Shown: positions 15,001 to 18,000 of the stretch, in pieces
How the letters are laid out: every line of letters begins with the position of its first letter
Position numbering within the stretch: the first letter of the stretch is position 1
Sequence record: NZ_CP021273.1
Strand: one strand, 5' to 3'
DNA: 58,935 nt
Origin: a plasmid
Position numbers: made by a program

Positions 15001-18000
15001 TACGTAATGATTTGAGGATCAAGCATGATTTCCCTTTTATTAAAATAATTAATTTTCACATTTTTTGTAATTTATCTGTGATTTATTGAAAATGCAACAA
15101 AAAATTAAAATTTCTATTTACTATAGAAACACAACGTGTTTTAATTTTTTTAAGATCATTTTATTAGTTGTTTAGAAGTTGAATAGGTCAATGTTCTTGA
15201 GGGTTGTGAGAGAGTCTTGGGGACATTTACGGGGATTGTTATGGACGTTTACAGGGATGGCTGCGTCGTTTACGGGATAGGGTGAGACGTTTTCAGGAAG
15301 TAAAAATAAGAAAAATAACTGATGGTGCGACGTTTACAGGTAGGGTGGGACGTTTGCAGGGATAATTGAGGAGAGACACTTGTGTCAAATTTAGAATTGA
15401 AGGGATTGAAGTTGCTTCGAGCCTTAGACAATTCATTCCAGGATGGAGAATCTATACCCAGCGAATCGATAACTCATTTAGCTGTTGAGTTATTAAACTC
15501 TGGAAAATATCAGCCTAGAAAACAATTTGATGAATCTATCTTAGATGAGCTCGCAAACTCCATCAAAGCCCAAGGAATTATCCAGCCACTTATTGTTAGA
15601 AAGATTGCAGAAGAATGCTATGAGATTATTGCTGGTGAAAGACGCTGGCGAGCAGCGAAAAAAGCAGGATTAACTTATGTACCTGTTATTATTAGAAATA
15701 TTGATGATAATGTTGCTCTCGCATTTTCACTAATTGAAAATATTCAACGCGAAAATCTTAATCCGATTGAAGAAGCCTTAGCATTAAACCGTTTTCGCGA
15801 AGAGTTTGAAATGACTCATGAGGACATAGCACAAATGATAGGGCGCTCTAGAGTTTCGGTGACTAATACGCTTCGCTTACTATCTTTGGATTCTAGAGTA
15901 ATAGAGATGTTAAACGAAGGTAAAATTGATATGGGGCATGCCCGATCTCTTTTAAAACTTTCGCCAGAACAGCAATATCAGGTTGCATGCATCGTCATTG
16001 AGAAACAGCTGAATGTACGTGACACGGAGGCATTAGCAAATCGATTAAAGTCATCAGAGAATGAGGGGCGTGACAAGACTTTTTCTTTAGCTAAACCGCA
16101 TGACAAGTGTGAGGAGTGGAGTACCTATCTATCTCAACAATTTACAACAAATGTTTCTGTAAAAGTAAATGCTGAGGGTAAGGGAAAAGTGATTATCGAG
16201 GTGAATTCTGCTAGCGAGGTTGATTGGTTGGTAAAGCTAATGAGCGAAAGAGGGTAGTTATCCACAAAATCTGTTGATAACGTTGTGTGATATTCGTGAG
16301 TTAAGCCTGTTAATGAGAAAAAAGAGCGTGTTTAATTTTTGGATTAATGATGAGACCATTGCGTATCTTTATCAGTAGTGTACAACAAGAATTTAAAGAA
16401 GATCGTCTAGAGTTATGCCACTGGTTGAAAAATGATCCATTAATGCGTCGTTTTTTTGATCCATTTTTATTCGAAGAATTGCCTGCCCATGATAGAAGAG
16501 CAGATCAAGTTTATCTGGAACAAGTCCGTGCTTGTGATATTTATATTGGTCTTTTTGGCTATGATTATGGCTTTGAGAATGCAGAAGGTGTTTCCCCTAC
16601 TGAGGAAGAATACAACCTAGCTTCCGAGGAACACAAGACTCGATTAATTTTCATAAAAGGAAATGAAGAAAGTAAACGCCACCCTAAAATGAAAACCCTT
16701 ATTACTCGTGTCGGAACCGAATTAATCAGGAGGCGTTATCAATCTATTTCCGAGCTGATCTCTGGCGTTTATGCCGCTTTAATACATGATTTAGAGGAAC
16801 GAAAATTAATTAGAAATAGCCCTTTTGATGCCGCGCCTTGTAGAGGCGCGACATTATTAGACTTGGACGAAGAGGGAATAACGACTTTTTTACGTCGAGC
16901 AAAACGCGGACGAGGGTTTCCATTGCCTATCGATGCGACCTCTTTTGAATTATTGTCCCATTTGAACTTGCTAGATGAGGATAAACCTACACATGCAGCA
17001 ATGTTACTTTTTGGAAAACAACCACAACGGTTTGTTATGTCATCCGAGGTAAAATGTGCTCATTTTCATGGGACAGAAGTAGCTAAACCCATTCCTTCAT
17101 ATCAGGTATATAAAGGCACCTTATTTTCACTGGTCGATCAAGCGATTGATTTTGTAATGTCCAAAATTAATCTTTGGGTGGGGACTAGAGAGGGAGGAGC
17201 AGAAGTGCCTGTTGCCTATGAAATTCCACAGGAAGTTGTGGCCGAAGCGATTGTCAATGCCGTTGCTCATCGTGACTACGATAGTAATGGAAGTGTGCAA
17301 GTTATGCTGTTTGCAGATCGATTAGAAATTTGGAATCCAGGAGGACTCCCTCCCTCATTAACCTTAGAAAAATTACGTCATCCACATGGTTCTGTTCCAA
17401 GGAACCCTTTACTTGCTGAACCTTTGTATTTAACGAAATACATTGAGCGCATGGGTACTGGTACAGGCGATATGATTCGTCGTTGCCGTGAGGTTGGACT
17501 GCCAGAGCCTGAATTTTCTATCTCAGACGGATTCAAGACAACCATTTGGCGTAAATCATCATCGACGACCGGACAAGTTACCGGACAAGTTACCGGACAA
17601 GTTACCGGACAAGTTACCGGACAAGTTACCGGACAAGTTACCGGACAAGTTACCGGACAAGTTACCGGACAAGTCGATCCATGGATTGAGCGGGTACTCA
17701 GAGCATGCGAACTAAAAGGCGAGCTGAAAAGTATAGAGCTGCAAGAGGTTGCTGGAATCAGGCATCGTGAGACTTTTCAACGCAATTATCTTGATCAACT
17801 ACTCAATGAGGAATTGATTGAGCGCACCATCCCAGAGAAGCCTAAAAGTAGACTACAAAAATATCGCTTGTCCCATAAGGGGAAAATGTTATTGGAAAAT
17901 TTGTCCAAAAATGAAAAATAAACATATTTCTTTTCGCAGGTTATCAGAGCAAGACTTTCCGCTTCTTATAAAATGGTTAGAAACACTCCATGTCAAAATT

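Follow-up and report, generated by a model that had tools for sequence, protein, structure and literature searches.

A putative iteron-type replication origin served by a Rep_3 initiator in a Legionella plasmid of the pLPP family

The window analysed here is the whole circular Legionella plasmid NZ_CP021273.1 (58,935 bp, 62% AT overall), an F-type conjugative plasmid of 59 kb that belongs to the pLPP family. We propose that positions 15027-15365 are its vegetative replication origin (oriV), an iteron-type theta origin served by a Rep_3 initiator, and we estimate the probability of this reading at about 0.8. Judged by their sequence, the direct repeats found in this region are most likely iterons, i.e., binding sites, of the plasmid's own Rep. 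An origin with Rep iterons was one of two options in the original prediction, and it is the one that we retain, because, from one lineage to the next, the motif goes with the Rep_3 initiator even where the partition genes are unrelated or differently arranged, and because the polarity of the array relative to an AT-rich tract is fixed and the minimum of the GC skew lies inside that tract. The origin is of an ordinary iteron kind, and the same element has already been predicted in the Coxiella plasmid QpH1 (Luo et al., bioRxiv 10.1101/2020.03.22.001875). Only the placement of the partition operon, which separates the origin from its initiator gene, is unusual. A literature search for a described origin in Legionella plasmids found none.

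Organization of the replication and partition region

The putative origin is flanked by divergent parA and a second parB gene, parB2 (Table 1); this arrangement had been predicted and agrees with the domains assigned by profile search. The repeats also bracket the rep-parB-parA block as anticipated, with the array upstream of parA and an inverted pair beyond the rep stop codon. A cognate Rep_3 initiator with WH1 and WH2 domains is encoded in cis: the matches to Rep3_N (64.9 bits, E=1.4e-17) and Rep3_C (42.4 bits, E=8.5e-11) both exceed the gathering thresholds, and rep is annotated in the relatives as encoding a replication initiation protein. A comparison of Rep with solved structures gave no sequence match, and its similarity to RepE was marginal (21 bits). 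ParB1, the product of parB, matched TIGR00180 above the cut-off (153.7 bits) and partition_RepB below it (90 bits). ParA is of the SopA/RepA-like long form, with partial matches to partition_RepA and SopA. The identity to the QpH1 counterparts was 59% for Rep (CBUA0039), 63% for ParB1 (CBUA0038), 84% for ParA (CBUA0037), and 50% for ParB2 (CBUA0036).

Table 1. Features of the replication and partition region (positions in the 58,935-bp window)
Feature	Position	Strand	Description
Distal iteron A	11407-11418	-	GACATTTGCAGG; opposite in orientation to the array, beyond the rep stop codon
Distal iteron B	11441-11452	-	GACATTTGCGGG; conserved in every relative, QpH1 and L. lytica among them
rep	11482-12759	-	425 aa; Rep_3-family initiator, WH1 and WH2 domains; alternative start 12771
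Two perfect 18-bp palindromes	12786-12803, 12811-12828		AATCCGAGTACTCGGATT; span the parB stop codon, just upstream of rep
parB (ParB1)	12809-13816	-	ParB_N; plasmid partition protein resembling RepB and SopB
parA	13818-15026	-	402 aa; long Walker-type partition ATPase, type Ia; AAA_31 and CbiA domains
AT-rich tract	15027-15216		From the parA start codon to the first iteron; GC 18-23%
28-nt block	15126-15153		GAAACACAACGTGTTTTAATTTTTTTAA; contains the inverted repeat AAACAC-N3-GTGTTT
Iteron 1	15222-15234	+	Core GACATTTACGGGG
Iteron 2	15244-15256	+	Core GACGTTTACAGGG
Iteron 3	15265-15277	+	Core GTCGTTTACGGGA; most degenerate of the six
Iteron 4	15286-15298	+	Core GACGTTTTCAGGA
Spacer between iterons 4 and 5	15299-15328		A-rich; creates the 43-bp gap
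Iteron 5	15329-15341	+	Core GACGTTTACAGGT
Iteron 6	15349-15361	+	Core GACGTTTGCAGGG; ends 8 bp short of the parB2 ribosome-binding site GGAGAG
parB2	15382-16257	+	Orphan chromosomal-type ParB, divergent; ParB_N, HTH_ParB, and ParB_C domains

Structure of the repeat array and the AT-rich tract

All six predicted direct repeats were recovered by a motif search, and Tandem Repeats Finder gave a period of 21 independently of that search. A search of the whole plasmid for the core GACRTTTRCRGG with at most one mismatch, which covered the proposed check for further copies, yielded 8 matches in 58,935 bp against 1.14 expected, and none of 100 shuffled sequences reached 8. These matches were confined to two intergenic sites flanking the replicon, six in the array and two at the distal site. 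The repeats fill only 15217-15365; the remainder of the interval initially assigned to them, 15060-15216, is the AT-rich tract.

The start-to-start spacing of the six copies is 22, 21, 21, 43, and 20 bp. Thus, the uniform 21-22 bp period that had been described holds for copies 1-4, and copies 4 and 5 are separated by a double-length gap (43 bp = 2 × 21.5), after which the last step is 20 bp. The helical phase is nevertheless common to all six copies within about 2 bp. Rep_3-family iterons are 17-22 bp long and phased at about 22 bp, and origins of this kind have three or more of them in tandem, about two helical turns apart; the six copies of the array agree with this pattern. A point against the origin reading is that the copies are degenerate, which is unusual for iterons: of the 13 positions of the core, 5 are variable. 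An Rfam scan of 11000-16500 (E≤1) gave no match, so no known RNA is indicated in the array or the intergenic region.

The AT-rich region lies directly beside the iterons. The claim that about 160 bp of more than 80% AT abut the repeats proved accurate (81.9% AT at 15025-15184; 80.6% at 15040-15199), and the tract shares second place among the plasmid's non-overlapping 160-bp windows, with one richer and one tied. We propose that it serves as the DNA-unwinding region. Because it must also hold the parA promoter region, its high AT content does not point specifically to unwinding. The tract includes an 11-bp tandem repeat, TGTRATTTATY, at 15066-15086. It also includes the block GAAACACAACGTGTTTTAATTTTTTTAA, which is invariant from Legionella to Coxiella, being exact in seven loci including QpH1, with flanks that are about 62% identical; this block may serve ParA as an operator or belong to the origin. 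A scan of the intergenic region for the sigma-70 consensus detected no promoter. By eye only, a weak parA promoter, TTGCAT-N17-TAAATT, could be read on the minus strand at 15097-15069, and it is conserved with QpH1.

Conservation of the repeats with the initiator

The layout of six plus two copies and its spacing, including the 43-bp gap, are kept in ten related plasmids from several Legionella species and in QpH1 of Coxiella. The spacing is 21, 21, 21, 43, and 20 bp in QpH1 and 22, 21, 21, 43, and 20 bp in the relatives L011-L013. In the spacer that creates the gap, the length is retained in QpH1 and all Legionella relatives and the sequence is not (61% identity to QpH1). A scan of genome contigs with Rep as the single query returned three close relatives only, with 86-89% identity, which extended the conservation without adding divergence.

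More distant relatives were collected by tblastn against a plasmid collection, and in them the repeats co-occur with the initiator lineage rather than with the neighbouring genes. The L. longbeachae plasmid pB1445CHC_73K encodes a Rep with 38% identity, a short ParA, and a ParB without detectable similarity to ParB1; it nevertheless carries six GTGACRTTTRCRGG repeats with 19-22 bp spacing upstream of parA, together with three inverted copies upstream of rep, and no ParB2 adjoins its array. The P. aeruginosa plasmid pF065 (Rep 35% identical) has 17 related repeats, CCCCATAAACAGGCACC (reverse complement ...TTTATGGGG), upstream of rep, at a distance from the promoter of parA, with parAB convergent on the other side. 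Five repeats that end in ...RCRGGAT or ...CGGGAT and recur every 22 bp adjoin rep in both Aquicella plasmid 3 and a Phaeobacter RepB-type plasmid, and in Aquicella plasmid 4 the iteron copies are located directly upstream of rep. In all five lineages, the AT-rich DNA flanks the motif on the same side.

The QpH1 genetics reported by Luo et al. (bioRxiv 10.1101/2020.03.22.001875) concern the homologous locus, where four 21-bp iteron-like repeats and an AT-rich region were predicted. The fragment CBUA0036-0039a replicates at a low copy number and displaces QpH1; rep (CBUA0039) is required, the ParB2 orthologue CBUA0036 is dispensable for both maintenance and incompatibility, and deletion of parA or parB destabilises the plasmid (Luo et al.).

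Candidate centromere and the role of the ParB proteins

The second option of the original prediction, that the repeats are a centromere or ParB-binding sites, fared less well. One form of it assigns them to the divergent orphan ParB2, as an operator or a second centromere. The array does lie immediately upstream of parB2, extending to its ribosome-binding site, and this linkage is found in all pLPP-type plasmids and in QpH1. Moreover, ParB2 has no canonical site elsewhere in the plasmid: a plasmid-wide search for the 16-bp parS palindrome TGTTNCACGTGAAACA with up to three mismatches gave 0 matches, and a search for Noc-binding sites gave matches at chance level, none of them in the array region. 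However, ParB proteins with an HTH domain, including the chromosomal-type family of ParB2, bind palindromes and not direct repeats of asymmetric sequence. In L. longbeachae, the array persists on a plasmid without an adjoining ParB2; further copies of the motif lie downstream of rep, distant relatives have it beside rep, and deletion of CBUA0036 spares the maintenance and incompatibility of QpH1 (Luo et al.). We therefore regard ParB2 binding as very unlikely, and parB2 is probably not needed for the origin.

The other form takes the array for the centromere (parS or parC) of ParA/ParB1, located upstream of parA as in type Ib systems. In pB171 and TP228, type Ib direct-repeat arrays upstream of parA act as both centromere and operator, and the array considered here is likewise upstream of parA. 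In addition, the destabilisation of QpH1 by deletion of parA or parB implies that a centromere lies inside the same 5.6-kb fragment. This assignment is, however, extremely improbable in our judgement. ParA is of the long type Ia and ParB1 is a ParB_N/HTH protein, and such systems use palindromes, usually downstream of parB, whereas the array consists of asymmetric direct repeats upstream of parA. Nor does the motif vary with ParB: it is unchanged in L. longbeachae, where ParB is unlike ParB1 and the palindromes are different, and the related array of pF065 is located elsewhere than at the parA promoter.

The palindromic sites expected of a type Ia centromere are found instead at 12786-12828, as a conserved pair. 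The sequence AATCCGAGTACTCGGATT occurs only twice in the plasmid, against 0.03 matches expected, and in QpH1 AATCCGGAGCTCCGGATT occurs twice at the equivalent position between parB and rep. The palindromes near parB are lineage-specific and differ wherever ParB differs. This pair is a better centromere candidate than the direct-repeat array and, by its sequence and position, is likely the parS of ParA/ParB1. A cis-acting partition site was reportedly mapped in the QpH1 partition region (qsopA/qsopB) by Lin and Mallavia in the 1990s. The palindromes were also considered as a Rep operator, which in pPS10 is an inverted repeat of half-iterons; we rejected this as the main reading, as L. longbeachae keeps the iteron motif and its palindromes differ with ParB.

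Distal iterons and placement of the origin

Two inverted copies had been predicted just downstream of rep, and both were found there on the minus strand (Table 1), 34 bp apart and 30-75 bp past the stop codon. Homology to plasmids with different cargo begins exactly at the outer copy (11404-11407), and distal iteron A thus marks the boundary of the replicon. By analogy with P1 (incA) and F (incC), in which control iterons flanking rep limit the copy number by titration or handcuffing, we propose that the distal pair is a copy-control or handcuffing site.

The same analogy raises the question of whether the six-copy array is itself only regulatory. The repeats would then bind Rep as a copy-control array (incompatibility determinants or operators of parA and parB2), and strand opening would occur elsewhere, e.g., near or inside rep, beside the two distal iterons. 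The array is located between two promoters and stops 8 bp short of the parB2 ribosome-binding site, and separate control arrays do exist in the iteron plasmids P1 and F. Most Rep_3 origins abut rep, and iteron copies are found directly upstream of rep in the relatives from L. longbeachae and Aquicella (plasmid 4). In the plasmid studied here, 2.3 kb and the parA-parB operon separate the array from rep, and no iteron-like operator was found upstream of rep; both observations count against the origin reading.

The search for host-factor sites is a further point against it, and in favour of a regulatory array: no DnaA box (TTATCCACA, at most one mismatch) and no IHF consensus were found inside 15027-15381. 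DnaA boxes and/or an IHF site are common, though not universal, in Rep_3 iteron origins. The nearest DnaA boxes, one perfect and an inverted 8/9 partner, are at 16258-16280, about 0.9 kb away. An 8/9 DnaA-like sequence, ATTTTCACA, at 15052-15060 was dropped, as it is not conserved in the relatives.

The cumulative GC skew over the whole circle reaches its raw minimum at 15135, within the AT-rich tract. The maximum, at 43244, is 28.1 kb distant, which corresponds to 48% of the circle. A replichore effect persists after the strands are separated: for minus-strand genes, the skew is -0.001 in the right arm versus -0.079 in the left. Because gene orientation switches at the minimum, it places the origin no more finely than to within a few kb, and GC skew cannot separate 11.4 kb from 15.1 kb.

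Within this limit, the position of the raw minimum speaks for the array as the site of opening. The distal site offers two copies only, at an irregular spacing (34-38 bp across the relatives) and without a sizeable AT-rich tract, whereas the helical phasing, the conserved gap, and the fixed polarity next to 160 bp of 80% AT DNA belong to the six-copy array in every lineage. A purely regulatory role of the array therefore appears improbable, and we retain 15027-15365 as the putative origin.

Proposed mechanism and implications

We infer Rep binding to the repeats, melting of the AT-rich tract, and handcuffing by the distal copies as the steps of initiation and its control. Rep monomers would bind the six iterons, whose phasing at two helical turns would put them all on the same face of the DNA. 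The nucleoprotein complex so formed, which probably includes host factors, would melt the adjacent 80% AT tract, and a host helicase loaded there would start bidirectional replication, with the terminus about half a circle away. The two inverted distal iterons most likely titrate Rep or pair (“handcuff”) Rep-bound origins and would thereby limit the copy number. Partition would be a separate process carried by ParA/ParB1, whose probable sites are the two 18-bp palindromes at the 3' end of parB.

A closer coupling of the two processes is conceivable, although we consider it rather doubtful: replication and partition could form one integrated unit, built on a Rep_3 initiator and convergent with repABC operons in its logic, so that copy number and segregation are jointly controlled. 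If so, rep would be the third gene of a parA-parB-rep operon with its promoter embedded in the origin, and the parS palindromes would lie on the translation-start region of rep, where loading or spreading of ParB1 could modulate the supply of Rep. The par and parB2 promoters would themselves be modulated by origin-bound Rep, and the inverted distal iterons would loop to the origin, closing the module.

Taken as an origin, 15027-15365 together with rep, the distal iterons, and the candidate parS likely forms the minimal replicon of the pLPP-family conjugative plasmids of Legionella, a family found in L. pneumophila Paris as well as in numerous isolates from clinical and environmental sources. 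This replicon could serve for incompatibility typing and as the basis of native low-copy vectors, for shuttling or curing, in Legionella. The results also refine the picture of the QpH1 origin, which is in use in Coxiella shuttle vectors, to six iterons plus two distal ones instead of four, and they name a palindromic candidate centromere.

Comparison with known systems

The closest counterpart is the homologous CBUA0036-CBUA0037 intergenic locus of QpH1, which has the same order of parB2, intergenic region, and parA-parB-rep. The two plasmids share the repeat core, the spacing pattern, the AT-rich tract with the 28-nt block, the two distal iterons, and the palindrome pair between parB and rep. 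They differ in the iteron count, which is four according to Luo et al. and six plus two distal in both plasmids in our analysis. In addition, QpH1 is a 37-kb plasmid of an obligate intracellular pathogen and is typed as non-mobilizable, whereas the plasmid described here is a 59-kb F-type conjugative plasmid of Legionella. The QpH1 origin is itself a published prediction, to which the genetics of the whole 5.6-kb fragment lend support.

The type Ib arrays (parC of pB171 and parH of TP228) resemble the array in being clusters of short direct repeats immediately upstream of parA. However, they are bound by a small ribbon-helix-helix ParB or ParG, whereas here ParA is of the long type Ia, ParB has an HTH domain, and the repeats track Rep.

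With the alphaproteobacterial repABC operons, the region shares the order of ATPase, ParB, and initiator on one strand and a palindromic candidate parS adjoining the operon; the best NCBIfam equivalog matches of ParA and ParB1 are partition_RepA and partition_RepB, both below threshold. The initiator, however, belongs to Rep_3 and not to RepC, the putative origin lies outside the initiator gene, as an iteron array upstream of parA, and not within it, and no counter-transcribed RNA was found (no Rfam match in 11000-16500).

Among iteron plasmids, P1 (oriR-repA-incA), F (ori2-repE-incC), and the Rep_3/WH1-WH2 plasmids pPS10, pSC101, and R6K have a two-winged-helix initiator, to which the Rep_3 domains identified here by profile correspond. 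They likewise carry tandem repeats of about 19-22 bp at two helical turns beside an AT-rich region, with iteron sets on both sides of rep, and they share a low copy number and an adjacent type Ia partition operon. Unlike in these plasmids, the control set in the plasmid studied here has two copies only, neither a DnaA box nor an IHF site was detected in the origin, and an iteron-related inverted-repeat operator is absent upstream of rep. The main difference in organization is the position of the partition operon, which does not follow rep but lies between it and the origin, giving the order ori-parA-parB-parS-rep-two iterons.

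Organization of the Repeat Array and the Surrounding Genes

The sequence belongs to the pLPP family of Legionella plasmids and carries MOBF/MPF_F conjugation genes. The junction 58935/1 matched trbC-traN of the relatives contiguously; thus, the window is a complete circle with its linearization point inside the tra operon. Two repeat finders, a pattern search, and reading of positions 14900–15700 revealed six direct repeats with the core GACRTTTRCRGG. The original prediction of six copies in a two-turn register was borne out, but their spacing was not uniformly 21–22 bp: the start-to-start distances were 22, 21, 21, 43, and 20 bp. 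Because this is a two-helical-turn register with a single double-length gap, all six iterons lie on approximately the same face of the helix. When up to one mismatch was tolerated, exactly eight matches to the motif were found in the window of 58,935 bp, compared with 1.14 expected by chance; none of the shuffles reached eight. The full-sequence search thereby also recovered, beyond rep, the two oppositely oriented copies that had been predicted near 11408–11456. Very AT-rich DNA extends left of the array as far as the parA start codon at 15026; it had been estimated at more than 80% AT, and the measured value of 81.9% for 15025–15184 ranked joint second among the non-overlapping 160-bp windows of the plasmid. 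On the other side, 8 bp separate the array from the ribosome-binding site of parB2.

Coordinates of the replicon elements and of other features of the plasmid
Feature	Position	Strand	Remarks
Distal iterons	11407–11418, 11441–11452		inverted relative to the array
rep	11482–12759	-	Rep3_N + Rep3_C
Palindromes AATCCGAGTACTCGGATT	12786–12803, 12811–12828		perfect, 18 bp; straddle the parB stop codon, just upstream of rep
parB (ParB1)	12809–13816	-	
parA	13818–15026	-	long form resembling SopA and RepA
AT-rich tract	15025–15184		
Candidate parA promoter	15069–15097	-	TTGCAT-N17-TAAATT
28-nt block GAAACACAACGTGTTTTAATTTTTTTAA	15126–15153		includes AAACAC-N3-GTGTTT inverted repeat
Iterons 1–6 (starts)	15222, 15244, 15265, 15286, 15329, 15349		repeat finders and pattern search
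parB2	15382–16257	+	chromosomal-type, divergent from parA; ParB_N + HTH_ParB + ParB_C
DnaA box pair	16258–16280		perfect box TTATCCACA; inverted 8/9 box TTATCAACA on minus strand
524-aa protein gene	16347–17921		DUF4062 + HATPase_c_4 + Fic-like C-terminal winged helix
Cargo-region palindromes	25153–25185, 25310–25333, 30260–30290		perfect; 33, 24, and 31 bp
MurJ-like gene	42234–43586		

The candidate parA promoter was read by eye and was not called by the consensus scan; its counterpart in Coxiella QpH1 is TTGCAT-N17-TATTTT. The 524-aa protein following parB2 is kept at the same position in three pLPP-family relatives (L001, L005, and L008), with “ATP-binding protein” as its only annotation there. 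The long palindromes of the cargo region lie near a DUF3987 gene and an AAA ATPase gene.

Conservation of the Replicon and Comparison of Repeats With Rep and ParB Lineages

The intergenic region with six iterons, together with the two distal copies, recurs in plasmids from seven named species of Legionella, namely L. pneumophila (including pLPP of strain Paris), L. oakridgensis, L. anisa, L. hackeliae, L. lytica, L. saoudiensis, and L. bononiensis, and in one Legionella MAG. In plasmids that differ in the cargo beside rep, the shared homology starts exactly at the first distal iteron (window 11404–11407); therefore, the iterons delimit the replicon module. The 28-nt block was identical in the Legionella plasmids and QpH1, the flanking intergenic DNA being approximately 62% identical, and a similar block is present in Aquicella plasmid 3. 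The block may serve as an operator for ParA or as an element of the origin.

A graded series of more distant relatives was obtained by tblastn of Rep against a plasmid collection. Coxiella burnetii QpH1 (identities of 59% for Rep, 84% for ParA, 63% for ParB1, and 50% for ParB2) has a layout identical to that of the window, with six repeats spaced 21, 21, 21, 43, and 20 bp and two copies beyond rep. Its parB/rep junction carries two copies of the palindrome AATCCGGAGCTCCGGATT in the place of the AATCCGAGTACTCGGATT pair, one copy of which falls within the final parB codons and the second in the spacer that separates parB from rep. For CBUA0036 (parB.1; L014, the QpH1 locus, 3420–3473), the start was probably annotated 18 codons upstream of its true position: alignment with the Legionella orthologue begins at an internal MADIELKGL start, and the N-terminus as annotated shares sequence with iteron 6 and borders on iteron 5.

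In L. longbeachae pB1445CHC_73K, Rep is 38% identical, ParA is short, ParB has no detectable similarity to ParB1, and a second ParB is absent beside the array. Six GTGACRTTTRCRGG repeats spaced 19–22 bp adjoin an AT-rich tract upstream of parA. Upstream of rep of this plasmid (L009, positions 1–366), three composite units consist of a 19-bp palindrome, AAGTTAAGTSACTTAACTT, abutting an inverted iteron, an arrangement that points to a physical link between the sites of ParB and Rep. Pseudomonas aeruginosa pF065 (Rep 35% identical) carries 17 copies of CCCCATAAACAGGCACC, with the reverse complement ending in ...TTTATGGGG, upstream of rep, and runs of these copies have a 22-bp period; parAB is convergent on the other side of rep, with separate parS-like palindromes, GTTTTCACGGTGAAAAC. 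Aquicella lusitana plasmid 3 and a Phaeobacter RepB-type plasmid each have five repeats with a 22-bp period beside rep, ending in ...RCRGGAT or ...CGGGAT. A. lusitana plasmid 4 (L016, 2276–3660) carries a group II intron insertion (ltrA) immediately before rep, and a single iteron copy (GTGACATTTACAGGAT) remains between the intron and the rep start.

Throughout the series from QpH1 to the Phaeobacter plasmid, the motif of the repeats and the orientation of this motif to the AT-rich DNA track the Rep lineage, and the palindromes differ wherever ParB differs. This is the pattern expected of Rep iterons with separate ParB centromeres, and it argues against the array as a site for either ParB. Of the two possibilities originally considered, Rep iterons were thus favored over ParB sites. 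Binding of the array by ParB2 appears very unlikely, given also that the L. longbeachae plasmid has the array without an adjacent ParB2. A role as the ParB1 centromere seems slightly less probable still, since it is the palindromes, not the array repeats, that change with ParB. The AATCCGAGTACTCGGATT pair is, judging from its position and this covariation, the likely parS centromere; its location on the start region of rep might allow it to link partition with expression of this gene as well.

Position of the Putative Replication Origin

Six phased repeats adjoining 160 bp of DNA with an AT content of 80% have the standard layout of iteron origins. At the sequence level, the replicon has a Rep_3 initiator, phased iterons, an adjacent AT tract, and repeats tracking Rep. 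Computed around the circle, the raw cumulative GC skew was lowest at 15135, within the AT tract, and highest at 43244, 28.1 kb (48% of the circle) away. An arm-dependent component was present when the skew was separated by gene strand: plus-strand skew was +0.106 in the right arm versus -0.098 in the left for plus-strand genes, and -0.001 versus -0.079 for minus-strand genes. This fits bidirectional replication from approximately 15.1 kb at a resolution no finer than a few kb, since the minimum coincides with the divergent gene switch. The terminus is likely at the skew maximum, next to the MurJ-like gene. That the Rep-bound array is purely regulatory and initiation occurs elsewhere is, in our view, improbable.

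In the intergenic region, neither an IHF consensus nor a DnaA box with up to one mismatch was found. Most of the Legionella relatives share the DnaA box pair located immediately past the parB2 stop codon, approximately 0.9 kb from the iterons; L. lytica and QpH1 do not.

Proposed Mechanism and Comparison With Known Systems

In the proposed mechanism, Rep monomers would occupy the six phased iterons, and the complex would open the adjoining AT tract, after which the host replisome would be loaded. Replication would proceed in both directions, with its terminus near 43 kb. Copy number would most likely be controlled by the inverted iteron pair beyond rep through titration or handcuffing, as by incA in P1 and incC in F. 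Partition would be performed by ParA/ParB1, probably via the two AATCCGAGTACTCGGATT palindromes, with ParB2 as a putative accessory. Sequence features and comparative behavior come from the present analysis, from which we infer Rep binding, AT-tract melting, and handcuffing; function at the fragment level has been shown in Coxiella only.

There, a 5.6-kb CBUA0036–0039a fragment replicated at a low copy number resembling that of QpH1 and cured QpH1 through incompatibility; deletion of CBUA0039 (Rep) abolished maintenance, deletion of CBUA0037 or CBUA0038 (ParA and ParB1) resulted in unstable plasmids, and deletion of CBUA0036 (the ParB2 orthologue) or CBUA0039a left maintenance unaffected (Luo et al., bioRxiv 10.1101/2020.03.22.001875). 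Wachter et al. (PMC10098735) also used this fragment, as the “QpH1 replication machinery.” Our literature search found no description of a Legionella plasmid origin.

The origin of QpH1, which Luo et al. predicted from four iteron-like repeats of 21 bp and an AT-rich region, is the homologue of the element described here. The iteron count of 6 + 2, the conserved 43-bp gap, the candidate parS, and the invariant 28-nt block are new details that refine the published QpH1 picture and do not change it. The origin, with its function predicted from sequence, shares its working principle with the iteron origins of P1, F, and Rep_3 plasmids, but has no recognizable DnaA or IHF sites. The one unusual trait of the replicon is the order ori-parA-parB-parS-rep-iterons, in which the partition operon separates the origin from the initiator gene; the gene order is similar to that of repABC operons.
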